NCBI RefSeq assembly: GCF_965152275.1
Contig: NW_027439781.1
Coordinates: 64,001-85,035 of the forward strand
DNA from: Natator depressus
Taxonomy: Eukaryota
Reading direction: 5' to 3'
DNA: 21,035 bases
Shown: in pieces, positions 3,283-19,875 of the stretch
How positions within the stretch are numbered: the first letter of the stretch is position 1
How the letters are laid out: each line of letters opens with the position of its first letter
Made by a program: the position numbers and the translations under genes
The notes under the pieces: model-generated
What the model was told of the DNA's origin: nothing
The model's database searches: none
The model's input: only the letters and a program-made list of their open reading frames with translations

Positions 3283-3334
3283 CCACGCGCCGCCTTGAGT
3301 CTTTCTTCTAACGCGACAGCACCGGGGAACCCCC

Positions 3335-3565
3335 CGTACCCCACTTCCCTCGCTGCCTCCCCGGGGACCCCACTCCCCTCCTGGTGCCCCATATCTCTCC
3401 TTGCCTCCCCGGAGACCACACTCCCCCCCCCCCGGTGCCCCACTTCCCTCCCTGCCTCCCAGGGGACCCCACTCCCCACTGGGACCCCACTTCCCTCCCT
3501 CCGTCCCTGGGGCCCCACTTCCCTGCCTCTCCGGGGACCCATTTCCCTCCTCACCCCCCATGTGT
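3335..3565. repeat. C-rich degenerate minisatellite of about 30-33 bp (CCCCACTTCCCTCCCTGCCTCCCCGGGGAC variants).
   Basis: Recurring CCCACTTCCCTCC...CCGGGGACC motifs, about 7 times. Confidence 0.6.
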
Positions 3566-4107
3566 CAACAGCGAAAGCTTTTAGTGACAATGGTGAAAAC
3601 CCAGCAACCCAATGTCCTTTGTTTATTATAGGGTCTCTCAAAGCCAAGAGCGGGGGGCTGGGTGGAAAGTGAAAGTGGGGGGGTGTCTGTGCCCCCCAAC
3701 ACAGCTCCTGCCACCCTCCCAGCCGGGATCCCCTCCCAGGCACCCCCCAGGCCCCACCCCCACTGCGGGGCTCCCCCGCAGCTCCATGCCCCCAGCTGCT
3801 GCCGGGACCCCCGCGCTGGGGGTGAATCGCTCCCTCCCCTGGGACCCCCCCCCCCGGCGCCGCTCGCCCCATTAAACTGCTAATGAGCCAGGGCCTGAGT
3901 CACCGAGCGGGGAGCGGGAGAACTGGGAGCTGCCCCCCCCCCCGCCTCCTGCAGAGGCGGGGAATCCCAGCGGAGCTGGGGGGGCGGGGGGGCGGGGTGT
4001 TTCTGGGCGGTTCCCGCGGCTCTGGGCCCCCCCGAGTCTCCCCACGAAAAGAGCTAAAATCTCTCGCGCCCAGACCCGCAGCCAACATTTATAACCCGCC
4101 GGGGCGC

Positions 4108-4740
4108 TGGGTGAGCCCTGCGGTGCCCCTCACTCCCGACCTGCAGCCCCCCGACCCAGCCCTGCGGTGCCCCTCACTCCCGACCTGCAGCCCCCCGACC
4201 CAGCCCTGCGGTGCCCCTCACTCCCGACCTGCAGCCCCCCGACCCAGCCCCGCGGTGCCCCTCACTCCCGACCTTCAGCCCCCACAGCCCCGCGGTGCCC
4301 CTCACTCCCGACCTGCAGCCCCCCGACCCAGCCCCGCGGTGCCCCTCACTCCCGACCTGCAGCCCCCCGACCCAGCCCCGCGGTGCCCCTCACTCCCGAC
4401 CTTCAGCCCCCACAGCCCCGCGGTGCCCCTCACTCCCGACCTGCAGCCCCCCGACCCAGCCCTGCGGTGCCCCTCACTCCCGACCTGCAGCCCCCCGACC
4501 CAGCCCCGCGGTGCCCCTCACTCCCGACCTGCAGCCCCCACAGCCCCGCGGTGCCCCTCACTCCCGACCTGCAGCCCCCCGACCCAGCCCTGCGGTGCCC
4601 CTCACTCCCGACCTGCAGCCCCCCGACCCAGCCCCGCGGTGCCCCTCACTCCCGACCTGCAGCCCCCCCCCCGACCCAGCCCTGCGGTGCCCCTCACTCC
4701 CCACCTGCAGCCCCCGCACCACCCGAAGCCACCCTCCCCT
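4108..4740. repeat. 44-bp minisatellite, about 14 copies, unit CCTGCGGTGCCCCTCACTCCCGACCTGCAGCCCCCCGACCCAGC. Some units are 38 bp with ..TTCAGCCCCCACAGC.
   Basis: Perfect or near-perfect 44-bp periodicity seen directly. It lies about 100-800 bp upstream of the putative PRRT2 promoter. A related family fills CDIPT intron 5. Confidence 0.9.
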
Positions 4741-4779
4741 CCCGGTGCCCCCTCTCCCAGGGGCTGCCCCCCTAGGCGG

Positions 4780-5031
4780 CGCTGGCGGGGGCGGGGGGGC
4801 TGAGCTGACTGCTCCAGTCCCGAGGCGGCTGTAGCTGCATGTGACGGGGTGGGGGCTGGGGGGGTCAGTCTCAGCCCCTGACAAAGCCGGGGGGGCGGGG
4901 GGGGCTGGCTGTTGCCTCCCTCCCTCCTCTAGCGCGTTTCCCTCGCTCGCTCCATCCCGCCTCCCGGGGGGGGGAGCCTGTCTGCAGCCGCCGCACCCGG
5001 GTCCCCCCCAGCATCTCGGGCAGCGCGACAG
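4780..5031 (+). promoter_or_regulatory. PRRT2: Putative PRRT2 CpG-island promoter with GC boxes, plus a non-coding exon 1 ending at the splice donor ACAG|GTAGGG (exon ends at 5031).
   Basis: GGGGGCGGGG boxes near 4786 and 4885. A strong GT donor at 5032-5033 lies 520 bp upstream of the coding-exon acceptor at 5550. Human PRRT2 exon 1 is non-coding. I cannot locate the transcription start. Confidence 0.35.
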
Positions 5032-5164
5032 GTAGGGACCGACCCCCCCGGGGCAGGAGCCGCCGGCACAGGGGGAGTGGGGGAAGGGGGGGCCCTGGCC
5101 TGCCTCTCTTCCCCTCCCCCACCCTGAGATAAGGGAAAACAACCCAAGCCAGCCCCCGGGAGGG

Positions 5165-5500
5165 GTTGGCGGATGGGAGGGGGCTCCGGGGGGGAATGGG
5201 GGGGACACGAGGGGGCTTGGGGGGGGCAGAAGGTAGTGGGGTGGGAGGAGGTTGGGGCAGAAGGGGGTGCGGATGGGAGAGAGTTGGGGGGGTGGGCGGA
5301 GGTTGGGGGGGAAGTGGGGGATGAGAGGGGTTCGGGGGGCAGTAGGGGTGGGGGATGGGAGGGAGTTCGGGGGGGAGTGGGGGATTGGAGGAGGTTGGGG
5401 GCAGTGGAGGTGAGAGGAGATTCGGGGTGGGGCAGTGGGGTATGGGAGGGAGTTTGGGGGGAAGTGAGGGGTGGGAGGAGGTTCGGGGGTGGGGCAGAGA
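5165..5500. repeat. G-rich degenerate minisatellite of about 30 bp (GGGATGGGAGGGAGTTCGGGGGGGAGTGGG variants), in PRRT2 intron 1. The G-rich strand is the PRRT2 coding strand.
   Basis: About 11 successive GGGAGG..GTT(C/G)GGGG units, seen directly. It ends about 50 bp before the exon 2 acceptor. Confidence 0.8.
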
Positions 5501-5559
5501 GTTGTGGGTCTGTGTCCCTGTGTCTCTACCCCTCCCGTCTCTTCGCCCAGGGCACCCCA

Positions 5560-6123
5560 ATGTCGGACGACACGGAAAAGGACGAGACACCCCCCCTGGG
5601 GCCAACTGAGCTGCAGTCACCCCCCTCGGCCCCAGACGTTCCCCCCTCGGCCCCAGATGCCCCCCCCTCGGCCCCAGACGTTTCCCCACCGGCACGAGTC
5701 ATTTCCTCGTCTGCCCCACCTGCCCCCCCCTCACCAGCAGTGACTGTGATGGTGGAGGATGAGGGGGAGCCCGAGGAGGGGCCCCAACAAAATGGACAGG
5801 CCGTGGGTGTGGGGGGTGCCCCCTACCCCCCCCAAACCTCCCCCCCCACTCTGGCCCCTGCTCGCTCCAAATCGGCCTCCCTGGGCGACTTGGGGGGCAA
5901 GGCCAGCGCTAACGGGGGGCCGCGGGTGCGGGGCAGCCTGGTGGGGTCCCAGGTGCATCTGGCGGGGGCAGGCTCGCCCCGTCCTAGCCTGAGCCACCAG
6001 CCCTCGGGGGCCGAGGGGGGCCCGGAGGCGGAGAAGCCGCGGGATTACATCCTGCTGGCTGCCCTGGCCTGCTTCTGCCCCATCTGGCCCATCAACATCG
6101 TCGCCTTCGTTTACTCCGTCATG
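5560..6123 (+). CDS. PRRT2: PRRT2 main coding exon (exon begins at 5551 after acceptor cttcgcccag, ATG at 5560). It runs [44 protein letters not shown]...[31 protein letters not shown]|, 188 aa, and ends at donor ATG|GTGAGA.
   Basis: The C-terminal part [30 protein letters not shown] aligns with human PRRT2 [30 protein letters not shown] (CD225/dispanin motif). The proline-rich N-terminus, splice-site geometry and phase-0 junction into the next exon all agree. Confidence 0.85.
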
Positions 6124-6129
6124 GTGAGA

Positions 6130-7010
6130 GCCCCCCCAAGCCTCCCACCGCCCCCCAGAGCCCTCCACCTCCCCTCCAGAGCCCCCCCAAGCCCCCCACC
6201 ACCACCCAGAGCCCCCACCGCACTCCCAGCCCACTCCAGAGTCCCCAACATGCCCCCCAGAAACCTGTGCACCCCAGAAACCCACTCTGTTTCCCAGAGC
6301 CCCCCAGAAAACAACTACCCCCCAGAGCCTCCCACTATGCCCCCAGACCACCCCAGAGCTCCCCATGCTCCCTGGAAACCCACCATGCCCCCCAGAAACC
6401 CACCACACCCCAGAGCTCCCCACCATGCCCCCCCATGCCTGCCAGGAACCCAATGTGCCCCCCAGAGCCCCCCTTTTGCACCCCCTCAGAAACACCACAT
6501 CCCAGAGCCCCCTGCTGCAGCCCTCATGCCCCACAGAAACCCACTGCACCCCCAGAGCCCCCCACCATGCCCCCATGTCCCGCGGAAACCCATTGCACCC
6601 CCCCCAGTCCCCCACCTCACCTGCATGCTCCCCAGAAACCCAGCACCCCCCAGAGCCCCCCAACATGCCCCCAGCATCCCCAACTGCACCCCAAAACTGT
6701 CCACGTCACATCAAAACCCCCACTGCACCTTAGTATTCCACATTGTGCCCCCAACCCACCATGTCCCCAAAGCCCCCAACAACCCCCCACTGCACCCCTA
6801 ATAGCCTCTGGGCCCCAGAAAATCCCAAAGAGTCCAATAACCCCACTGCAGTCCCCAGTCCTCCAAAATACTCCACCCACCCCTCCTGCTGTACCCCAAA
6901 CCCACCAGACCCCCCCCCCCGCATGCCCCATATCCCCCACTATTTCCCCAATAGCTCTCGGGGCCACAGATCTCCCCTGCCCTGCCCCTGCCATGCGGGA
7001 GGGGGTCTCG
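6130..7010. repeat. Degenerate C-rich minisatellite with units of about 36-42 bp (CCCCAGAGCCCCCCACCATGCCCCCCAGAAACCCAC...), filling PRRT2 intron 2.
   Basis: Recurring CCAGAGC(C/T)CCCCA..ATGCCCCC..AGAAACCCA modules, more than 20 times. This explains the Pro-rich ORFs 6267-7019 (+) and 5731-6666 (-). Confidence 0.6.
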
Positions 7011-7078
7011 GGGTGGTGATGTGGGGGGGTTATGGGGCCAGGCGCCCCCCCCATCTTACCCCACGTCTCTCCCCACAG

Positions 7079-7219
7079 TCCCGGAACAGCCTGCAGCAGG
7101 GGGATGTGGACGGGGCGCGGCGGCTGGGCCGTGTGGCCAAACTGCTGAGCATGGTGGCCCTGCTCGGGGGCGTCATCATCATCGTCCTCTCGGTCGCCAT
7201 CAACTTCGGCCGTGAGTGA
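7079..7219 (+). CDS. PRRT2: PRRT2 transmembrane / CD225 exon, [44 protein letters not shown](RE*). The stop at 7217-7219 applies if the exon is unspliced. Alternative GT donors lie after 7211 (C|GTGAGT) or 7215 (GA|GTGAGG).
   Basis: Acceptor ctctccccacag at 7067-7078, phase 0. The sequence is almost identical to human [44 protein letters not shown]. Human then continues VYK* in a separate terminal mini-exon. Confidence 0.85.
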
Positions 7220-7224
7220 GGGGC

Positions 7225-8330
7225 GCAGCCCCCGGAACCTCCCGAATTGCCCCCAGGGACCCCAAATCTCCCCCAGAGCCCCCATATGTCCCCAGGACCC
7301 CAAATCACCCTTGGGACCCCGAAATGCCCCCAGGACCCCGATACATCTCCGGGACCCTGATATGTCCCCAGGACCCCCATAGGCCCACCCAGAATCTTGA
7401 CATGCTCCCAGGATGCTGAAACACTCCCGGGACCCCAAAACGCCCCCGGGACCCCCATACACTCCCAGGACCCCAATATAGCCCCAGGATCTCGATGTGC
7501 ACCTGGGAAGCCCATACACTCCTGGGACCCTGATGCACCCCCTGGGACTCCAATTCACCCCCCGTGACTCCCAGGACCCCAATATGCCCTGCATGACCCC
7601 CTGGGACTCCGGTGCGTCCTGCCCAACCCCCAAGACACAACATGCCCCACATGACCTCCCCGGTACCCCAATTTGCTGCACACATTCCCCCTGGGACCAC
7701 AGAAACACCCCCTGGGATCGCAAAACACCCCGCACAGCCACTTGGGACCCTGAAATACCCCCCAGAACCCCAATACACCCTGCACAATCCCCCTGGGACC
7801 CTGATATGCCCTGGGACCCCCAAATTTTGCTGGCATCCCAATACGCCTTGCAAAATCCCCTGAAACACCCTCTGGGACCCTGATTCACCCCACACAACCC
7901 CACAGGACCTTGAAATGCCCCTAGGATCCTGATATGCCCCTGGGACCCCAGTTCATCCCGCATGACCCCTGGACTCCCAAATGTCCCTCAAGACCCCAAA
8001 AAGGCCCACACAATCCCATGGGACCCCAAAACATCCCCAGGACCCCCCAGACCCTGATATGCCCCTGGAATCCTGATACACCCACCCCTATTACCCCAAA
8101 ATTCCCACCCCTCCTGACCCCCTGGGACCACAGTACACTCCCTGGGATCCCATGAAGCACCCAGGATACACCCCACACGATCCCACTGGGACCCTAAAAT
8201 GCCCCACATGACACCACAGACCCTGATAGGCCTCACATGACCCCCTGGACCCAATATATCCCACACAATGCTCTGGAAGCCCCAAATGCCCCTGTGACGG
8301 GATTCCCGGGGTGCAACCTGGGACTGTGGG
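7225..8330. repeat. Degenerate satellite of about 21 bp, about 50 units, consensus roughly CCC(T/A)GGGACCCCAAAATGCCC.
   Basis: Recurring ggaccccaa/ggaccctga..atgcccc motifs at 20-22 bp spacing throughout. The same family resumes at 9355. Confidence 0.8.
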
Positions 8331-9354
8331 ACAGCTGTGCCCCCCTGAACTCTCTCTCCAGCCTGGGCTGTCTCCCACAATGCCCTGCTAGTGACCAGCA
8401 GCGAACCCCTCCAGGTGCTGTGATCACTCACCTGTCCCCGTGGGGGGAATCACACGCCCGGCTGGGGCCACGCATGGGTCACACAGGGAAAGGCACCAGC
8501 CAGATCCTCCCAGCTCAGGAACACGCCGTCTCGTGCTGCTCCTGACCCGTTCTTGAGCAATGTACGTTTGTTAACTGGTTCCCCACGTCACCAGTGGAGA
8601 GTGGACACACACCAGCCTTTGTAACCCGGGCAGATTTTCCAAACCCTGCAGGCAAACTCCGCGGTAAGGATCCCCACGAGAATCGGCTTCTTGATTACAG
8701 ACGATGGGTTTGAAGTGATAGGCAAGTCAGAGTAGTTACCAAAGGACAATAACAGAGACCTGCGCAGGCTAAATTCCCCACCTAGACACTAGGCAATAGC
8801 GGGACGAAGTCGTTTTTCTCACCCTGCTGGATGCTGCAGGTTGGTTGGAGTCTCACACGCCGGCTCGCCCTGTTAGCCTGGGGACCAGTCTCCTCAGCTC
8901 CAGCCTCCTCCCTGCCTCCAGTGTGGGGTGGGGGAGGAGAAAGGAGAAACCATGTGGCCCCTGTCCCCTCTTTTCCACGGTCAGGCCCTGTGCTTGGAGA
9001 GCACGAGTCCAGGCATGTCTGGTCTGGGGGCATTGCTGAGACCCCAGACAAGGCTGAGCAATTCCCCTGCCGGAGAGTCACTGAACTGTAGCTCCCTTGC
9101 TGGACAACGGCTGTTGATGGTTGTTCGACACCCACCTGGGCATCAGTCTGTTCCCTTGCTGGTGTCTCTGGGCAGCTACTATCTGGCCGATTCCCCAACT
9201 CACAACCGTACCACACAGTCTCATAACTCCCCACGCACCGATGACAGACACGTTTCGCTAGAACCTTTCCCCTTGTACCTCACCGGGCCTGTTTTATACG
9301 CAGTACCCCAATCCTATCCAAACGAGGAATAGGGAGGTTACCGGGCACTCCCCT

Positions 9355-9860
9355 GAGGTATGGAGTGCCACACCCCCACCCTGGAACCCCAAAACCCCCC
9401 TGGGACCCAGCGCAACTCCCTGGGACCACAAAATACCCCCTTCGATCCCTATTTGCCACACACAATCCTCTTGGACCCCAAATCTTCCTCAGGGCCCCAG
9501 TACGCCTCAGACAACCCCATGATGCCCCACACAACCTCCCAGGACCACGCTCTGCCCACATGACCCCCCTGGAACCACCCAAACAAGATCTCCAAATGAC
9601 TCCCACAGACCCCAATACACCCCACGTGACTCCCAGGATCCTGAAACATCACCCCCCAAGGTCTTGATACACCAAGCTCTTGATGCACGATTCCCTGCCA
9701 AAAAAGCCCAGCACAACCCCCCCACCCCGGACTTTCATACACCCTGAATGGCCCTCCCCCGATACACCCCACATGACCCCTCCAGGACTTCAACCCTCCC
9801 CCGCCCCCGGACCCTGATATGCCCCAAACGACTTCCCTGGGACCCTGAGATGCCCTGCAT
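9355..9860. repeat. Second block of the 21-bp CCCTGGGACCCCAA satellite.
   Basis: Same motifs as 7225-8330. The two blocks flank the unique segment 8340-9350. Confidence 0.75.
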
Positions 9861-10189
9861 TAACTGTCCTTCTCTTCCCCACCCACACCTCTCCCTGACC
9901 CTATGCTGCCCCCCTGCTCCCCCTCCCTGTTCCCCCTTCTCCTGACCCCCCCATCCCTCCCCAGTGTTCCAGTGAAGACGACTCCGTGCTGTCCCCAGCC
10001 CCCCCAACCCAGGAGCCCCCCTGGCACTGCTCTAATGGGGACCAACCATCCAGGGGGGCCGAGGGGGCGGAGAGGGGGATTACGGCAGCCAACAGAGGGG
10101 TGTGGCCTCCAATCCCCCTTCCGCCTCGGGGACGGAGCCAGAAAAGAAGAACAGGAGAGAATGGAGGAAGAAACCCCTCTCCATCTGTC

Positions 10190-10640
10190 CACCCGTATGC
10201 CTTCATCCGTCTGTCCCGCTGTCCATCCAGCCATTCTGCCATCCAACCATCCGTCCCGCTGTCCATCCGTCCATCCATCCCACTATCCATCTAGCCGTCC
10301 TTCCAGCCATTCTGCCATCCATCCTTGCGTCCGTCCATCCATCCCAGAGTCCTACTGTCCATCTAGCTGTCCTGCAGTCCGTCCAGTCTGCTGTCCGTCC
10401 AGTCGTCTACCGACTTATCCATCCAGTGATGCATCTCTCTGTCCACCCACCCATCCATTCATCTCCCCGGCCATCCATCCGTCTGTCCATTCATCCATCC
10501 ATCTCCCCTGTCACCCATCCATCCAGTGATGTATCTGTCCACCCATCCTGCCGTATGTCCATCCATCCATCCAGCTACCCATCCCTTCATCTGTCCATCC
10601 AGCCTTCTGCCAACTCATCCATCCATCCAGTGACACTCCC
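10190..10640. repeat. Degenerate (CCAT/CCGT)n tetranucleotide microsatellite (ccatccatccgtctgtccatcc...).
   Basis: Seen directly. It explains the Ser/Pro/His-rich ORFs 9903-10529 and 10102-10728. Confidence 0.8.
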
Positions 10641-10721
10641 TCCATTTGGCCTTCTTTCTGTCCCTCCCCTCACTCCCTTTCCTTGCCCTCCCTCCCTTCT
10701 GGCTCATTGCCCCTTCGACAG

Positions 10722-10728
10722 CAAATAA
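10722..10728 (+). CDS. PRRT2: Hypothetical PRRT2 terminal micro-exon, C AAA TAA. With the 7215 donor (phase 2) it gives ...FGR-D-K-stop. The stop codon TAA is embedded in the poly(A) signal AATAAA at 10724-10729.
   Basis: There is a 70-nt polypyrimidine tract plus CAG acceptor at 10640-10721. AATAAA follows immediately after. The human gene also ends with a 3-aa mini-exon ending in K. Frame compatibility depends on choosing the 7215 donor. Confidence 0.2.
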
Positions 10729-12139
10729 AACTCTTTCGATTTCCATGTTTACAAGACAAGAAAAAGCGCGGGCCCGAGACGCCAGAGGGACCCCTCGGCT
10801 GCCAGGGGCACGTTTACATCCCAGCTTGCCCCATCCCAAACGGACGAATGAAACAGAGCCAGCGATGGAAACCCCAACGCCCCTTCTCCCCTGGCTCCCC
10901 GCTGCACGGGGACACGGCCAGCCAGGAACTGGGATTTTGGGGCCCACAGCGGGACACGGAACAAAAGAACAAAGAAGGGGGCAAAAAGGAGAGATGCCGC
11001 TGGGCGCCAATTCCTCGTTGATCCTATTTACAACCCCACATCAGCCAACGGGGGAGATGGGTGGGCGGTGTCTGAATGGGGACGGAAGAGGGAGAAAGGT
11101 GGAGAGGTGGCTGGAGGTTCCCCTCCTGCCCTGCCTCAGGCTAGTCACGTTTCGGGGGGCGAGGAAGGACAGAACGAAACAGGCCAAAGGGAGGAGAGAT
11201 GCCGGCACCTCGTTGGCTGCACCTCCTTGCCCCTCTGGCGGGTCGGGCTAACGAACCTGCGGCAGGGCCGAGGGGGGATGCCGGCGCCGGGGGGCCCGGA
11301 AGAACAGAACAAGAAAGGCCCGACGGAGGAGTGGGGCGGGAACCGGCCCAACGCCAACCCCACCCTGGCGCGCCAAGTGACTTCAGACTGTTACAGACCC
11401 AACCTTGCGGGGACGGGGATGGTTTTGGGGGGCAGGGGAATGCCCCCAGCCAAGCCCCCCCTTTCAGGTCCCATCTTTTGCACGCTATCCACTGGGTAAT
11501 TGGGGGGGGCAGGAGCACAGGGCTGGGGACAGTACAATTGGGGAGGAAATGGGGGGGGGCAGCAGGAATTTTCAGGGGGGGATGAAGGGGCTTGTGTTTT
11601 GATGCTGACATGCCTGTATTATACATGCACGTTTTTCTATACTCTATTGTTGGGGGTGATGGGGGCAGGGGGTCACTCCCAGATGGGCCCTGGAGGTGAC
11701 CAGGGTGGCTTCAATATCGGTGGAGGGGGGCCTGGGACACATTAAAAAAAAGCATTTGTGTAAAGGGAAGGAGGGATTTAAGCCATTTGGGGGGCCAGGG
11801 GGTCGGCTCCCATCTGGCCCCACAGCGGGCAACTGCTGGCTGACAGGGGAGGGGAATAAGTCTCCCCTCCCCCCCTTAAATCCTCCTTACGTGGAGGATG
11901 TGGAATGGCCCCACGTCCATCAATTGGGGGGAGGGGGTTGCATAGTGGGTTTTAACCCCCACGGGAAATAATTCCCAGCCCCCTGTTTTTCCAGAGAACC
12001 CCCAAACCAGGGTAAATCTGAACCCCAGGGCCCAGTGCCCCCTGGCTCCCCGGGGCCTGTTTTGTAGCGATTCGGATGCATGAGAAGCCAATAAACTGAT
12101 GCACGAGAACGGGTCCATGTGTCTGTCTGCAGGAAGCTG

Positions 12140-12590
12140 GGCTCTGGCCGCCCCCCCTCTGTCGGTCCCCCCTGCCCCCTCTAACCCCCTCCTGCAGCCC
12201 CCCAGAGACCCCATCCCACGGTCCCCTGTAACCAGCCCCCACGCCCCCCCCACACCACTGTCCCACGGGTCCCCTCTAACCCCCTCCTGCAGCCCCCCAG
12301 AGACCCCATCCCACAGGTCCCCTGAAACCAGCCCCCCTGCCCTACTCCAGAGAAACCCCCTCCCAGTGCTGGGCCAGGGGTCTCCCTAAATCCAGCCCCT
12401 GCACCCCACTGAGGCCCCATCCAAGTGCCAGGCCCAGGGTTCCCCTATAACCAGTCCTCTCGCCCCACCCCAGAGTAGCTGTGTCCCAGCACCAGACCAG
12501 GGGGTCCCCTGTAACCAGCACCCCTGCCCCAGAGCAGCCGTGTCCTGGCCCCAGACCAGGGGTCCCCATGTACCCAGTGCCCCCCGCCCG
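12140..12590. repeat. Degenerate repeat of about 60 bp (CCCCCAGAGACCCCATCCCACGGTCCCCTGTAACCAGCCCCC... / CCAGACCAGGGGTCCCCTGTAACCAGCACCCCTGCCCCAGAGCAGC).
   Basis: Recurring ccagagaccccatcccac and gtcccct(g/c)taaccag modules, seen directly. Confidence 0.6.
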
Positions 12591-12623
12591 GTTGAAATGA
12601 GAGGCTGGGATTGACGGCCTGCT

Positions 12624-12629
12624 CTTTAT
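12624..12629 (-). terminator. CDIPT: Candidate CDIPT poly(A) signal. AATAAA on the minus strand reads TTTATT on the plus strand.
   Basis: This is the only canonical hexamer downstream of the CDIPT stop (13553) on the minus strand. It implies a 3' UTR of about 0.9 kb that would include the 60-bp GCAAAGCATTGTGGGAAA array. Confidence 0.3.
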
Positions 12630-12879
12630 TGTAGCTGGGACCCCTCCCCACAGCAGGGGTCAGTTGCCCCCCAACCCCCGAGGGGCAGGGTCGAGTCCCA
12701 GCGGAGTCGAACATCCACCACACACATGGAGACGCTTACGCAGGGGAAGCGGCCGTCTGCTGAGGGGCGGGGGGCACGGGCCTGGGCTCCCCTGGGGGGG
12801 GCAGATGAGGAATGACACCCCCCCCCTCGCTGGGGGCAGTGAGGCATCCGCACTCAGGGGAGAGCAGAAGGGGCAAAAA

Positions 12880-13440
12880 AACATGGCCGCCCTCACGCCA
12901 AGCTGGGGGGCACAAAGCCTTGTGGGAAGGAAAAGGAGCCATGGGGGATCTGGAAAGGGGACCCCTCCCCCATAGTTATCCCCCCCCATGGAGTGATTGC
13001 CCCAGGGCAAAGCATCATGGGAAGAGGAGGAGGAACCAATACGGCTCCTGCAGGAGTGCAAAGCATGATGGGCAATGGATCAGGAGCCTTGTGAATAACC
13101 CCAAACACTCACCCTCAAAGCACTGTGGGAAATCGGGGGGCTCAGGTATAAATGCAGCCACTGCCCAAACAAGCACAAAGCATCATGGGAAGCCAAGGGT
13201 GCTGGAATAAACCACAGCCCGCCGGGCACTGTGGGAAACAAGGGGAGGCCGCAGTGACGTCCCCCAGACAATCAACGCCTAGGGCCCACTGCAGAGCATG
13301 GCGGGAAACGGACCCGTGGGATAAATATGGTCCCCGGAGGGCACAGAGAATCGTGGGAGGGGGGACGTAGGCTACACCTTCAGCATGACTTTCACACCCC
13401 CTGCAAAGCATTGTGGGAAACATGTCACGCCCATGCCACA
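12880..13440. repeat. Degenerate tandem repeat of about 55-65 bp with conserved core (G)CAAAGCAT(T/C)(G/A)TGGGAA(A/G), 9-10 copies.
   Basis: The core recurs near 12898, 12952, 12997, 13057, 13120, 13178, 13228, 13292, 13338 and 13408. Three more copies lie at 14575-14770. Confidence 0.75.
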
Positions 13441-13552
13441 AGCACACAACACCAATTGGTGGGTTTCTAACCAATCGAGGGGAGCTTCACCCCGGGGGGG
13501 GGGCTGGTCCCCTCGGGGGGGGTGTCTCTGCCGGCCTCCCCCTCCCCCACCA

Positions 13553-13704
13553 CTACTTCTTCTTGGCCCGCTCGGCGGCGTCCCGGGCGGCCATATTGCA
13601 GGAGGCAGAGACGAGCTGCACGAGGCTGATGAGGGACTTGAGGGCGGCGAGGGGGGTCGAGACCCAGAGGATGAGACGGAAAAGACCCAGGCGTCCGGGG
13701 AGCA
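13553..13704 (-). CDS. CDIPT: CDIPT last coding exon, (V)LPGRLGLFRLILWVSTPLAALKSLISLVQLVSASCNMAARDAAERAKKK*, with stop TAG at 13553-13555.
   Basis: Matches human CDIPT C-terminus ...VGLFRMGLWVTAPIALLKSLISVIHLITAARNMAALDAADRAKKK*. Acceptor cccctcag (minus strand), phase 1. Coordinates are derived from the ORF-track frame. Confidence 0.9.
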
Positions 13705-13744
13705 CTGAGGGGGGAGGGGAGAGAGTTACACAAAACCACACACA

Positions 13745-14345
13745 TGCACGCCAGGCGGTGCCCCCCACTCCCGACCCACAGCCCCCCGCCAGCCCAGCCC
13801 CGCCCCCCCCAGCCCTGCCGGTGCCCCCCACTCCCGACCCACAGCCCCCCGCCAGCCCAGCCCCGCCCCCCCCAGCCCTGCTGGTGCCCCCCACTCCCAA
13901 CCCGCAGCCCCCCGCCAGCCCAGCCCCACCCCCCCAGCTCTGCGGTGCCCCCCACTCCCGACCCGCAGCCCCCCGCCAGCCCAGCCCCACCCCCCCAGCT
14001 CTGCGGTGCCCCCCACTCCCGACCCGCAGCCCCCCGCCAGCCCCCCCAGCTCTGCGGTGCCCCTCACTCCCGACCCGCAGCCCCCTGCTAGCCCAGCCCC
14101 ACCCCCCCAGCTCTGCGGTGCCCCTCACTCCCGACCCGCAGCCCCCCGCCAGCCCAGCCCTGCCGGTGGCCCTCACTCCCGACCCGCAGCCCCCCACCAG
14201 CCCAGCCCTGCCCCCCCAGCTCTGCGGTGCCCCTCACTCCTGACCCACAGCCCCCTGCCAGCCCAGCCCTGCCCCCCCAGCTCTGCCGGTGCCCCTCACT
14301 CCCGACCCACAGCCCCCCGCCAGCCCAGCCCTGCCAGTGCCCCCC
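13745..14345. repeat. 61-63-bp minisatellite, about 10 copies, unit CTGC(C)GGTGCCCC(C/T)CACTCCCGACCCGCAGCCCCCCGCCAGCCCAGCCCCGCCCCCCCAGCC. It is a longer relative of the 44-bp family at 4108-4740 and fills CDIPT intron 5.
   Basis: Periodicity seen directly. The core GGTGCCCCTCACTCCCGACC(T/C)GCAGCCCCCCG is shared with the 44-bp array, in the same + orientation. Confidence 0.85.
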
Positions 14346-14374
14346 ACTCCGACCTGCAGCCCCGATGCGCCCAC

Positions 14375-14456
14375 CTGCAGGCCCCTCGGTGAAGTGCAGC
14401 AGGTACAGCATGCAGAAGAAGAGCTCGTTCCCGGCACACATGGTGAAGAGGACAGG
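14375..14456 (-). CDS. CDIPT: CDIPT exon PVLFTMCAGNELFFCMLYLLHFTEGPA(V), with donor GCAG|GTGGGC on the minus strand.
   Basis: Matches human PALFTLCAGNELFYCLLYLFHFSEGPL(V). Acceptor ccccag, phase 0 in, phase 1 out. Confidence 0.9.
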
Positions 14457-14574
14457 CTGGGGAACGGGAGGAAGCAGAGTCAGGGCGGCCTGTGGAACTC
14501 CCTGCTGCAGGATTGTACTGACAGCCCCATGGGGGCAGAGCAGGGACAGGAGGAGAATTCAAGGTGCTGGGTAA

Positions 14575-14933: not shown

Positions 14934-15015
14934 CCGCGAGGTGTAATACACCCGCAGCACCGGGTTCCCCGTCAGGTCGATGCTCTTATGACTGTCACTG
15001 CCTTGAACCATGGAG
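14934..15015 (-). CDS. CDIPT: CDIPT exon (S)SMVQGSDSHKSIDLTGNPVLRVYYTSR, with donor CGG|GTGAGT.
   Basis: Matches human (S)SVVRGSESHKMIDLSGNPVLRIYYTSR. Acceptor ctctccccag, phase 2 in, phase 0 out. Confidence 0.9.
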
Positions 15016-15092
15016 CTGGGGAGAGACGGGGACATCAGCGGGGGTGGGAGCCAAAGCCCCCCGCCCGCAGGGCGCCCCCGGGCCCCGCCCAC

Positions 15093-15246
15093 CTGTGCAG
15101 GTGCAGCCAGTGGCTGGCGACGTCCAGGCTCATGCTGAGCTGGTAGAGGAGGGCGCGGGGCGGGTCCAGCAGCGCCAGGTTCACCAGCAGGCACATGGTG
15201 GCGCAGCGATCGGTCAGCATGTCCAGCATGGCGCCGAACCGGGTCC
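15093..15246 (-). CDS. CDIPT: CDIPT exon (G)TRFGAMLDMLTDRCATMCLLVNLALLDPPRALLYQLSMSLDVASHWLHLH(S), with donor CACAG|GTGGGC.
   Basis: Matches human TRFGAMLDMLTDRCSTMCLLVNLALLYPGATLFFQISMSLDVASHWLHLHS. Acceptor ccacggcggcag. Confidence 0.9.
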
Positions 15247-15361
15247 CTGCCGCCGTGGGGGGAAGGGTCAGAGACGGAGCCCCGCCCACCCGAGCCCCCC
15301 ACCGCCCAGCCCCCCGGGGGGCAGGAGCACACGGACGCCCCAGTCCCCCGGGGGGCCCTAC

Positions 15362-15496
15362 CTTGGTTGAGGGCGCGGGCCGCGTGGCCGTCGACCGCGT
15401 CCAGCAGGCCGCTGAGCAGGTAGGAGGCGGCGGCCGGGCCAGGGTCGCTCGGCATGAAATAAAAGGCGAGGAAGAGGAGCAGGATCCGGGCGTAGC
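15362..15496 (-). CDS. CDIPT: CDIPT exon (G)YARILLLFLAFYFMPSDPGPAAASYLLSGLLDAVDGHAARALNQ(G), with donor CAAG|GTAGGG.
   Basis: Matches human GYARIVFAIISFYFMPCCPLTASSFYLLSGLLDAFDGHAARALNQG. Acceptor ctgtcgcccgctgcag. Confidence 0.9.
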
Positions 15497-17249
15497 CTGC
15501 AGCGGGCGACAGAGCCACAGTGCTCCTCAGTCCCGACCCGCAGCCCCTCGGCCCGGGGCTCCCTGCCCCGTTACAGCCCCTGCCCCACGCCGCTCCCAAC
15601 CCACGGGGGAGACGCCCAGACTCCTCCGGGGCCGGGGGGGCCGTTGGGAGCATCTGGTGTGAGCCCCCACATCACCCTGGCGCAGACCCGAGAACCCCCG
15701 GCTGGGCTGAGCCATCGCCAGTACTGGAGAATTCCTGTCGGCCCGGAGGGAGCGGTTCTGCCTGGGCCGTATTTACAGCCTCTTTCCAGGCCAGGATCGT
15801 CCTGCCGCTGGGGCACGTCAGACCTTTCTCGGCGGGACTGACGAGCCACAAGGTAACGATCTGTTCCCCACGGAGGTGCTGCCAGGCCGGGCTCCAGTCA
15901 CCCTGGAGCCAGCTCTGCGTTAAGCTGAACAGCTGGAGCCTCTCCCTCGAGGGCAGGTTTCTGATCCTTTCATCCTTCCCGGGGCTCTTCTCTGACCCCT
16001 CCAATGGATCAACATCCTCCTGGAACTGCAGGCACCAGAGCCGGCCCCGGGATCCCAGCCGCGGCCGCCCCAGGACTGAATCCAGAGGGAAAATCCCCCT
16101 GTTTGCACAGCCCAGGATGGCATTGGCCCTTTTGGCCCCAGCATTGCACTGGGCGCTCTTCTTCTGCTGATTAACCCCCGCCCCCCCTTGCTGAGAGTCC
16201 CTGCGTCCCAGGACAGAGCCCCCCAGCCTGTAAGTGCAGCCGGCACTCGTCCTGCCCAGGGACCAGCATTTACATTGAGCTGGGTTAAACCAGTGTCTGC
16301 TTGTGCCCGTTTACCCAGCCATCCAGCTGGCTCTGGACCAGTGACCTCTGCTCTGCGACACTTCCCACCTCCCACCCCCAATGTTCGGGTCAGCTGCAAA
16401 CTTCACTGGTGAGGACGAGACACCAGGTGAAGCCAGCCAGACAAGGCAACGCTGAGACGCTATTGTGAGTCTGGGACCGCTCCCCTCCCTCCTTCCTTCC
16501 TGGGCTGGGGGAGGACAGGGACAGGGTGGGCAGGGGGCTGCATCGCCCTCAGCATGCTCCTGTTCTGATCCAGCCTCATGCTCCAAGGCAGCAGCCTCGC
16601 AGGGGTCAGGAAGGAGGGTTTGCCTCCTCCTCATTCCGCCACTGGAGCCAGGGCACTGCCTGGCTGGCGAGTCAAGCCCTGAGCCAGTCCCCACGGGGCC
16701 AGCCTGGAAAGGTAACCCCAATGCACTAGAGGCAGCGACTCCAAGGGGCCAGAGTTAAACGCATTAAGCCCCAGTGTGGACGCTCTTGCTCAAAATTAAG
16801 TTGGCTTAACTTAATTCACTTGGGAAGCAAAACTGAATTAAGGGCACCGCAGTGCCAACTGAGGGCGTTCACACTGGGGTTTGATGGGGGTCAGCGCCTC
16901 CACTTCTGCTTGACAGCGACAGTGAATTCAGATGGACTCCCCCAGCTGGCCCTGTGCAGACAAACCCCACATCTGAAGGCAAGCTGGATGGTGCAAGGGA
17001 TGCCCTGGGTACAGCAGCGCGTGGGGGCCCATCTCAGCCCCCACCAGATGGGAGAAACCCAAAGGGGCGGTCGGTAGGCATAATGGGGACCGGCTGCCTG
17101 TGCCTGGTTGCTGGAGAAGGGGCACCTGGGCACTGCGGGGGACCCGGTCGAGCTGGATCTGTCCATGCTGGAGGGGATGGTGCAGGGTGGCAGAGTTTGA
17201 GCTGGGTGTGACACCCTGGCACCCCAATATTCGCAACTGTCATGTAATG

Positions 17250-18050: not shown

Positions 18051-18512
18051 TCCCATTGAGGGTGAGGGGGACTGGGTGTTACACCCATATACTGGCGAGA
18101 TTTGACCAGAGCAGGATGGTACCGCTCTGGGGTCCTAGGCTGGGAGGCTGCTGGTTAGAGAGCCTGCATGTGGCTGCAGCTGGGTGTGTCCCGACCTGTG
18201 CAAATGCTGGTGAAGGTGCAGACTGGGGGGCTTTGCAGCTTGTCACAGCAGCACACTGTGAGAGGGAGCCCAGGCTGGTGGGTCAGGGGCTCAGTGGCAC
18301 CCCCAGTTCCAGCTGGCACCCCAGGGGGGAACCCATCATACCAGGGACCTGCCACGAGAGCTCTGGGCCACTGGTTCCTGGGATGGCTCCGACCTGGCCC
18401 CAGGGCAGGGGACAGGGCAGCTCGGGGGACATGAAAGGGACTAGGGGCTGTCCCCTGGGGGACACCAACTCTGACCCAGCTCTGAGGATCCCCCCAGGCT
18501 CCCCTCACTCAC

Positions 18513-18558
18513 CAATGAGGTTCGGCACAAAGAGGAAGATGTTTTCGTCCTTCATCAT
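18513..18558 (-). CDS. CDIPT: CDIPT first coding exon, MMKDENIFLFVPNLI(G), with donor ATTG|GTGAGT. The start is ATG at 18556-18558 (a second in-frame ATG lies at 18553-18555). An acceptor-like cacccacag lies immediately 5', suggesting a separate 5'-UTR exon further upstream.
   Basis: Matches human MPDENIFLFVPNLIG. Phase 1 out joins the GC TAC... exon at 15496 across an intron 1 of about 3 kb. Confidence 0.85.
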
Positions 18559-18594: not shown

Positions 18595-18905
18595 AGCCAG
18601 CCCTGGGGTCCCCCCGAGCCAATGCACCAGCCCTGCCCCCCCTGGGGTCCCCCCCGAGCCAATGCACCAGCCCTGCCCCCCGCACCAGCCCTGGGGTCCC
18701 CCCCCAGCCAATGCACCAGCCCTGGGGTCCCCCCCCAGCCAATGCACCAGCCCTGCCCCCCGCACCAGCCCTGGGGTCCCCCCCCAGCCAATGCACCAGC
18801 CCTGCCCCCCGCACCAGCCCTGGGGTTCCCCCCCAGCCAATGCACCAGACCTGCCCCCCCGCACCAGCCCTGGGGTCGCCCCCCAGCCAATGCACCAGCC
18901 CTGCT
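18595..18905. repeat. Minisatellite of 34 bp and 51 bp units, unit CCAGCCCTGGGGTCCCCCCCAGCCAATGCACCAG (with or without CCCTGCCCCCCGCA), about 8 copies. Each unit carries a CCAAT box (AGCCAATGC).
   Basis: Seen directly. It starts 37 bp 5' of the CDIPT start-codon exon, on the gene's upstream side. Confidence 0.85.
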
Positions 18906-19379: not shown

Positions 19380-19875
19380 TTCCCAGGATCCCCTGGGGCC
19401 GGCCTGGCCCGTTTCCCAGAATGCCCCGGGGCCGGCCTGGCCCGTTTCCCACAATCCCCCAGGCCCATCTTGGCCCATTTCCCACAATCCCCCGGGGCCG
19501 GCCTCGCCCGTTTCCCACAATCCCCCAGGCCTGTCCTGGTCCGTTTCCCACAATCCCCTGGGAACGGCTTGGCCTGTTTCCCAGAATGCCCGGCGGCCGG
19601 CCTGTCCTGTTTCCCAGAATCCCCCAGGCCCGTCCTGGCCCATTTCCAGAATGCCCCGGGGCTGGCCTGGCCCATTTCCCAGAATGCCCGGGGCCTGCCT
19701 GGCCCATTTCCCACAATCCCCCAGGCTGTCCGGGCCCATTTCCCACAATTCCCCGGGGCCAGCCTGGCCCGTTTCCCAGAATGCCCCGGGCCCAGCCTGG
19801 CCCGTTTCCCACAATCCCCCAGGTCCGGACTGGCCCGTTTCCCAGAATGCCCTGGGCCCGGCCTGGCTGACCTCC
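19380..19875. repeat. 33-bp minisatellite, about 15 copies, unit GGCCCGTTTCCCAGAATGCCCCGGGGCCGGCCT with CACAATCCCCCAGGCC variants.
   Basis: Periodicity seen directly. It explains ORFs 19281-20093 (+), 19110-19916 (-) and 19150-20001 (-). Confidence 0.85.

Follow-up and report, generated by a model that had tools for sequence, protein, structure and literature searches.

The stretch examined here, hereafter the window, comprises 21,035 nucleotides of the genome of Natator depressus (NCBI RefSeq assembly GCF_965152275.1, contig NW_027439781.1, positions 64,001 to 85,035 of the forward strand) and carries two minisatellite arrays, termed A and B, upstream of the gene PRRT2 and within the gene CDIPT, respectively. 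Positions refer to the window unless another locus is named. With human CDIPT and the PRRT2 C-terminus as queries, tblastn assigned six coding exons of CDIPT to the − strand and the exons of PRRT2 to the + strand, the two genes being direct convergent neighbours here. Together with the splice sites, this upheld the gene context given in a first-pass annotation of the window, in which PRRT2 was read on the + strand and CDIPT on the − strand. The spliced CDIPT protein was identical to Natator depressus XP_074797740.1 and 98% identical to that of Chelonia mydas. The arrays and the features to which they relate are as follows.

2909–2964, − strand: possible fourth copy of the repeat unit, partial and inverted, ~1.2 kb upstream of array A (nhmmer E = 0.074)
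4114–4743, + strand: array A, 14 units, 630 bp, upstream of the putative PRRT2 promoter
4744–5559, + strand: PRRT2 5′ region, with conserved blocks at ~4790–4900, a putative non-coding exon 1 ending at 5031, a G-rich intron 1 (5032–5550) and the ATG at 5560
13705–14374, − strand: CDIPT intron 5, 670 nt, between exon 6 (13553–13704) and exon 5 (14375–14459), splice sites read from sequence
13757–14363, + strand: array B, 10–11 units of 48–63 bp, 607 bp, in CDIPT intron 5
15519–15578, + strand: single unit of the same family as arrays A and B (core 15519–15550), in CDIPT intron 1, 22 nt from the exon 2 acceptor
18511–18555, 15360–15497, 15095–15247, ~14934–15020, 14375–14459 and 13553–13704, − strand: CDIPT coding exons (tblastn)

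Array B covers 91% of CDIPT intron 5, leaving 52 nt free on the side of exon 6 and 11 nt on that of exon 5; the earlier description of an array essentially filling this intron therefore held, while the spacing of about 30 bp that it gave on each side did not. The end of array A is 817 bp before the PRRT2 ATG and ~290 bp before a conserved GACAG/GTAGGG splice donor at 5031/5032. Both this donor and the promoter-proximal blocks are kept in two sea-turtle assemblies (L006 and L007, see below), Mauremys, Emydura and Carettochelys. Array A would thus end ~150–290 bp upstream of a putative non-coding PRRT2 exon 1, with an inferred transcription start site, in agreement with its earlier placement 5′ of the PRRT2 promoter.

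The minisatellite definition applied was a head-to-tail unit of ~10–100 bp in an array of ~0.1–20 kb. By unit and array size, both array A (44-bp units) and array B (48–63-bp units) are minisatellites or variable number tandem repeats (VNTRs), and both contain internal variant units and higher-order structure. Of the 14 units of array A, nine measure 44 bp, three 40 bp and one 48 bp, while the last, which is degenerate, measures 58 bp; Tandem Repeats Finder reported a 44-bp period at 4114–4715 (13.9 copies, 92% matches), and the higher-order period is 128 bp (44 + 44 + 40). For array B, 61-bp periods were called at 13755–14160 and 14153–14335, the unit lengths being, in order, 63, 63, 61, 61, 51, 61, 48, 61 and 62 bp, followed by one partial unit, with point variants as well. 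The arrays had first been placed at 4108–4740 (44-bp unit) and 13745–14345 (61–63-bp unit), and these calls needed only the refinement of their limits to 4114–4743 and 13757–14363.

Arrays A and B have a common core of 29–32 nt. Searching the window with the 32-nt form (GGTGCCCCYCACTCCCGACCYGCAGCCCCCCG) at up to three mismatches produced 24 matches, 14 in array A and 10 in array B, all of them on the + strand, with no match in the window outside the two arrays and none in 100 dinucleotide-preserving shuffles. The relatedness and common + orientation proposed in the first-pass annotation were thus confirmed. Its limitation of the homology to the core proved too narrow: the core itself is real, but the entire 44-bp unit of array A is collinear, end to end, with a 48-bp variant of array B (14117–14164). 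The 61-bp unit (61-nt consensus GGTGCCCCTCACTCCCGACCCGCAGCCCCCTGCCAGCCCAGCCCTGCCCCCCCCAGCTCTGCC) corresponds to this 44/48-bp form plus one extra sub-repeat of 12–14 nt, CCCAGCYCTGCC. A profile hidden Markov model (HMM) of the 61-bp units, run against the window at E < 0.01, matched array A, array B and a single unit at 15520, and nothing else; the many other C-rich arrays of the window were not matched, and unit similarity is for this reason considered specific rather than compositional. Low-stringency blastn also aligned the unit to 3330–3550, 12195–12336 and 18640–18904, but these matches (60–68% identity) were rejected as compositional, having found no support in the profile search. Arrays A and B are true relatives within one GC-rich, strand-asymmetric minisatellite family.

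The single unit at 15520 gives the family a third place in the window. A 26-nt version of the core found one additional + strand match, at 15525–15550 (2 mismatches, 0 expected), and the homologous segment around it is about one unit long; the unit lies 22–54 nt from the acceptor of CDIPT exon 2. The earlier picture of two local arrays was accordingly correct as to both arrays and incomplete as to the family, which has at least three sites, the third in CDIPT intron 1.

For a wider view, CDIPT loci with 10-kb flanks were compared from Chelonia mydas (L001), Chrysemys picta (L002), Carettochelys insculpta (L003) and the pleurodire Emydura macquarii (L004), together with those of sea-turtle assemblies L006 and L007 (one CDIPT protein in common, though possibly distinct species), two Caretta assemblies (L008 and L009), Mauremys reevesii (L010) and Gopherus flavomarginatus (L012); the emu locus (L005) represented non-turtles. 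DNA identity between the window and the Chelonia locus was 92–96%. Across the turtles compared, both cryptodires and the pleurodire Emydura, the family occupied these same three sites, always on one strand. The profile HMM (E < 0.01) detected no copy outside these three orthologous sites in nine turtle loci of 23–26 kb, and no member of the family was detectable at the emu locus.

Copy number and unit length differed widely between lineages at each of these sites. At site A, copy number ranged from 1 to 14 or more: in Emydura, one unit (GGTGCCCCTCGCTCCCGACCCGCAGCCCCC) is flanked by conserved blocks, and there are at least 9 units (59–68 bp) in Chrysemys and 13 (60–66 bp) in Gopherus. Units of 40–48 bp, as in Natator, are present in Chelonia and L006, Mauremys has short degenerate units of ~42 bp, and a different 44-bp unit occupies the equivalent place in Carettochelys. 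Site B varied between 3 and 27 units, namely 3 each in Emydura and Mauremys, ~5 degenerate units in Carettochelys, 6 each in Gopherus and L007, 8 in Chrysemys, 10 in Natator, 13 in Chelonia, 26 in Caretta and 27 in L006. The intron 1 site holds a single unit in all turtles compared save Carettochelys, where the family forms a 1.9-kb array whose end is as far from exon 2 as the single unit is elsewhere. Site B lengths change fast between close lineages, as L006 and L007, only ~1% diverged, differ by 27 versus 6 units. The two Caretta assemblies (99.76% identical, the one same-species pair) both carry 26 site B units in the same order.

The three units of site B in Emydura are split by an insertion of ~1 kb (L004 reverse-complement 10262–11311) with a CR1-like 3′ end (GGTCAGAAGGGACCATTGTGATCATCTAGTCTGACC), which divides the array into 1 + 2 units; the array is therefore older than the insertion. 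The two living turtle suborders separated roughly 200 million years ago, and because the same three positions are occupied in cryptodires and in Emydura, the family appears to predate the pleurodire–cryptodire split. The ancestral unit was probably ~61 bp long, the 44-bp unit of sea turtles being a derived, shortened form.

Two observations concern the exon 5–intron 5 junction next to array B. The donor region of CDIPT exon 5 (14364–14385, + strand GCGCCCACCTGCAG/GCCCC) resembles the unit segment CTCCCGACCTGCAGCCCC, which hints that array B may derive from a duplicated exon 5–intron junction, although the match is short, C-rich and possibly due to chance. In the emu, CDIPT intron 5 (L005 reverse-complement 10140–10760) lacks the turtle unit and contains C-rich tandem repeats (CTCCCAGTGCC...); the 3′ end of exon 5 with adjoining intron is also present there in three tandem copies, so that this junction is duplication-prone in a bird.

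In all chromosome-level assemblies compared, the locus lies 0.5–2.0 Mb from the end of a 127–163-Mb chromosome. GC content of the window is 65%, and minisatellites with strand asymmetry are abundant in it. On the + strand, which is the sense strand of PRRT2, C accounts for 58% of array A and 62% of array B. G-quadruplex (G4) motifs predicted from sequence (regular expression G3+N1-7, four times) numbered 14 in array A and 12 in array B on the − strand, compared with none on the + strand of either array, and one canonical predicted motif is found per unit on the − strand. At array B and at the intron 1 site, the G-rich strand is the sense (non-template) strand of CDIPT. Array A lies where GC skew flips from negative to positive (~4750–4900), beside the PRRT2 promoter.

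Taken together, these data are probably best explained by one small local minisatellite family which arose from an element of ~60 bp, was present at three places of the PRRT2–CDIPT locus in the common ancestor of living turtles and has changed independently since; we hold this reading with moderate confidence. Of this reading, the sequences directly show unit homology, site orthology, lineage-specific copy number and unit length, and the lack of flank homology described below. Under this scheme, the turtle ancestor would already have carried a ~60-bp seed in two introns of CDIPT (intron 5 and the 3′ end of intron 1) and in the region upstream of PRRT2, with a fourth place possible, and each copy would then have expanded, contracted or altered its unit length independently in each lineage. 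The 44-bp unit of array A would correspond to the ancestral ~61-bp unit minus one of its two internal 12–14-nt sub-repeats. Replication slippage, unequal sister-chromatid exchange and double-strand-break repair are taken as the likely engine of length change because the arrays share features of G4-prone terminal minisatellites; such change would be favoured by the near-terminal, very GC-rich location and by one predicted G4 motif per unit. The arrays themselves would be nearly neutral to selection and simply carried along in the introns and the promoter-upstream region.

Several points weigh against this explanation. The family may also occur elsewhere in turtle genomes, the scope here being loci of 23–26 kb. 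The likeness of arrays A and B in Chrysemys would also fit some past exchange between them. The static unit consensus described below, set against ~25% flank divergence, is not predicted by a purely neutral model without added bias. The two Caretta assemblies, with their identical B arrays, do not demonstrate hypervariability within a species, and assembly quality may affect some copy numbers.

It is also conceivable, though in our judgement rather unlikely, that the unit is part of a genome-wide dispersed repeat, either a transposable element fragment or a widespread turtle minisatellite superfamily, whose neighbouring insertions at this locus seeded the arrays. When the flanks of array A, array B and the intron 1 unit were compared, they had only low-complexity matches of 16–29 nt in common; homology is thus one unit long between unrelated flanks, as it would be for inserted fragments. 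The possible fourth copy at 2909–2964, which matches the unit tail (GCTAGCCCAGCCCTGGGCTCCCC), has weak inverted counterparts at equivalent positions in Carettochelys (L003 reverse-complement 2873–2935, nhmmer E = 0.004) and Emydura (L004 reverse-complement 3986–4044, E = 0.066). This weak evidence makes a fourth copy possible, and its inverted orientation would fit dispersal better than a tandem-type duplication, slightly favouring the dispersed repeat. Conversely, three to four copies fall within 13 kb while none occurs elsewhere in ~25 kb of orthologous sequence at nine turtle loci, the clear copies are all on one strand, and no longer element consensus is visible around any of them. Rfam searches of the whole window at gathering thresholds returned no match, and the emu locus is without a copy. 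Exact-pattern scans of metagenomes for the core gave no hit in one scan and, in the other, one chance 22-mer in a non-repetitive, microbial-looking contig.

A segmental duplication that included the flanks was ruled out, given that no flank homology was found and the homologous segment is about one unit long. The seed would have spread over ~12 kb.

The unit consensus has remained almost static. The 61-nt consensus sequences of Caretta site B, Chrysemys site A and Gopherus site A are the same but for one C-run indel, and 0–1 substitutions in 61 nt separate Caretta from testudinoids. The modal 29-nt core (GGTGCCCCTCACTCCCGACCCGCAGCCCC) is identical in the arrays of Caretta, Chelonia, L006, Chrysemys and Gopherus and differs by 1 nt in Emydura. 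By comparison, alignable non-coding flanks are ~74–75% identical between Natator and Chrysemys and 70–82% identical between Natator and Emydura. That units of one array differ so little implies that they have turned over after the species separated; under simple neutral concerted evolution, the consensus would then be free to drift at approximately the neutral rate. Candidate reasons for its stability are GC-biased conversion among units, in a sequence of 80% GC in which most mutations run from G/C to A/T, a preference for re-amplifying those units in which the G-run structure is intact, or function.

The boldest reading of this stability, and an unlikely one, is that selection or a self-reinforcing drive has maintained the ~60-nt unit, chiefly its 29-nt core, at three sites on one strand around PRRT2 and CDIPT since before the pleurodire–cryptodire split. 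The unit could then be a protein-binding, G4/R-loop or splicing module with its copy number tuned in each lineage, or else its structure could render it the variant likeliest to be re-amplified. If true, selection or drive would account for a near-fixed consensus beside flanks that have diverged by ~25%.

A narrower functional proposal, to which we assign a distinctly low probability, regards the 29-nt core as a selected cis-element and the arrays as an amplified functional site, for instance a site bound by protein, a G4/R-loop module, a region around the branch site or an intronic splicing enhancer built of G runs. Consistent with it are the identity of the modal core beside diverged flanks, the location of the intron 1 unit where the branch site is expected, and both the position of array A at the GC-skew sign change by the PRRT2 promoter and the G-rich character of the CDIPT non-template strand. 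Copy number, in turn, varies between 1 and 27 without visible constraint, site B is degenerate and site A carries a different 44-bp unit in Carettochelys, and the emu is without the element, all of which disfavours strong functional constraint on the unit. No known transcription-factor motif is kept across the variants, and a CTCF-like match, judged by eye, requires a TG variant that is absent in Natator. Resemblances on the G-rich strand (CTCF-like, SP/KLF-like and Jeffreys-core-like), also by eye, were rejected, none of them being kept across unit variants. A role of arrays A and B in PRRT2 or CDIPT finds no support in the sequences compared here.

The first-pass annotation had taken the similarity of the arrays as a sign of local duplication or gene conversion between neighbouring genes. 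Continuing or recent ectopic conversion, or transfer of arrays from gene to gene, seems to us very unlikely to maintain this similarity. The case for it comes mainly from Chrysemys, where A and B units are nearly identical and both include TGCCAG and TGCTAG variants; these variants are old, because they are also present at site B of sea turtles and Emydura. Short A-like units of 42–43 bp occur inside site B of L006 and L007, and mean distances between arrays do not exceed those within arrays, the mean pairwise values within arrays (0.036–0.07) equalling those between arrays and between species (0.04–0.10). With so static a unit consensus, similarity between A and B is uninformative on recent exchange. 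Array-private variants argue against conversion: changes at site B of Gopherus (CCCGCCCCGCAGCTCC) are not in its array A; array A of L006 is homogenised for a CpG-rich variant (GGCGCCCCTCGCTCCC...GACCCGGCCCTGG) that its array B lacks; the tail CGACCCRG is specific to the A arrays of Natator, Chelonia and L006 and not found in their B arrays; and the intron 1 unit retains its own substitutions (AGTGCTCCTCAGTCCC) in all turtles compared. The differences apparently shared between arrays are mostly recurrent CpG transitions. A candidate diagnostic difference, GACCTGCAG in array A versus GACCCGCAG in array B, was rejected on the same grounds, as both forms were found at site B of L006 and L007 and at site A of Gopherus. 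The proposal thus stands as regards the kinship of the arrays, their local nature and their shared orientation. Occupation of orthologous sites points to an ancient rather than a recent event, and conversion is unsupported; the link between A and B would be an ancient local duplication, with ongoing gene conversion not supported.

Comparison of array A between L006 (reverse-complement 1–470) and the window (4114–4743) showed a CpG-rich variant, GGCGCCCCTCGCTCCCGACCCGCAG, in the former versus TpG/CpA in Natator and Chelonia, with the promoter-proximal last unit being the same in both. Units of array A thus turn over rapidly within the array, each lineage having fixed a variant of its own.

The possibility that the arrays are an assembly artefact or a proline-rich coding exon of PRRT2 is practically negligible: PRRT2 is indeed proline-rich and all three + frames of array A are open (306-aa open reading frame (ORF) at 3883–4803), but nine further assemblies, independent of this one and representing eight other species, have arrays at these places, unit lengths (40/44/48 and 61–66 bp) are not divisible by 3 and differ from species to species, which scrambles any reading frame, the annotated PRRT2 coding sequence starts at the ATG equivalent to 5560, and the translated repeat has no similar protein in two very large collections. 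In one, a search of the array translation against predicted ORFs gave 8000 word-sharing candidates, none of them significant; in the other, HMMER with the array B translation against 1.84 billion representatives gave four weak matches with 29–37% identity to the query. Both searches are uninformative on genomic copies, since neither recovered even the known orthologous arrays.

Other tandem repeats are frequent in the window. A G-rich minisatellite with 29–32-bp units (5188–5490) occupies most of the putative PRRT2 5′ untranslated region intron (5032–5550), where C falls to only 4% at 5251–5500, a strand bias opposite to that of array A. C-rich repeats of 19–51 bp lie in PRRT2 intron 2 and past the last coding exon (6132–6694 and 7241–7824), and a proline-rich ORF (5173–6801) crosses the donor of PRRT2 exon 2 into the intron and could mislead ORF-based gene calls. 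Another 61-bp minisatellite (279–1286, 16 copies, 89–91% matches, higher-order periods of 124 and 185 bp) was identified just upstream of a MAZ-like zinc-finger exon (ORF 1328–1585); its sequence is unrelated to the family of arrays A and B. Near-perfect 31/49/80-bp repeats (18640–18904, 95–100% matches) directly precede the CDIPT ATG exon, and a 33-bp array of 15 copies lies beyond that exon (19380–19867), both aligning to other sea turtles with length differences. In addition, the PRRT2–CDIPT intergenic region contains long imperfect (TCCA)n-like tracts (10222–10629, ~31 and ~47 copies, 59–61% matches).

Human minisatellites are generally held to be young and fast-changing. The turtle arrays resemble the human subtelomeric CEB1, CEB25 and HRAS1 VNTR in having units of tens of bp, array lengths of 0.5–1.5 kb, G/C strand asymmetry, one predicted G4 per unit, variant units and a position near a chromosome end. 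In yeast, the instability of the CEB1 minisatellite is G4-dependent (PMC2673046, PMC3486850). Unlike these three, the turtle unit is found at three neighbouring sites, both sites and consensus have been kept across suborders, and its G4s are predictions from sequence. A persistence of monomer sequence over very long times is also seen in the satellite DNAs of crocodilians, which are tandem-repeat families of slowly evolving reptiles in the form of high-copy chromosomal satellites (PMC10900743); like them, the turtle family belongs to slowly evolving sauropsids, whereas it is low-copy and gene-embedded and forms orthologous single-locus arrays. The literature on turtle minisatellites and on conserved GC-rich subtelomeric minisatellites yielded nothing specific to the PRRT2–CDIPT locus.

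Allele-dependent effects on expression have been reported for the INS VNTR, the MAOA uVNTR and SLC6A4 STin2. The turtle arrays are similarly placed, just upstream of a promoter (A) or within an intron (B), and vary in copy number between lineages; in contrast to those VNTRs, they are known from sequence alone, and the two Caretta assemblies are identical. G triplets reportedly act as splicing elements of short introns (McCullough & Berget), and on the CDIPT sense strand intron 5 is full of G runs near its 5′ splice site. The turtle unit differs from such elements in being a conserved stretch of 60 nt, and the likeness is one of letters.

In kind, the element is ordinary, a GC-rich minisatellite family, but its history is unusually deep and well resolved. 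Minisatellites are commonly regarded as DNA that changes fast and does not last; here, a single family can be traced at three orthologous sites in both turtle suborders, from a single unit up to 27 units or 1.9 kb. One lesson is that recent gene conversion should not be inferred from the likeness of adjacent arrays unless outgroups have been compared. The near-fixed unit consensus raises the question of how it is kept while neighbouring DNA diverges. The locus provides a natural series for the birth of arrays from single seeds, for change in unit length (from 61 to 44 bp through loss of a sub-repeat) and for the decay of arrays.

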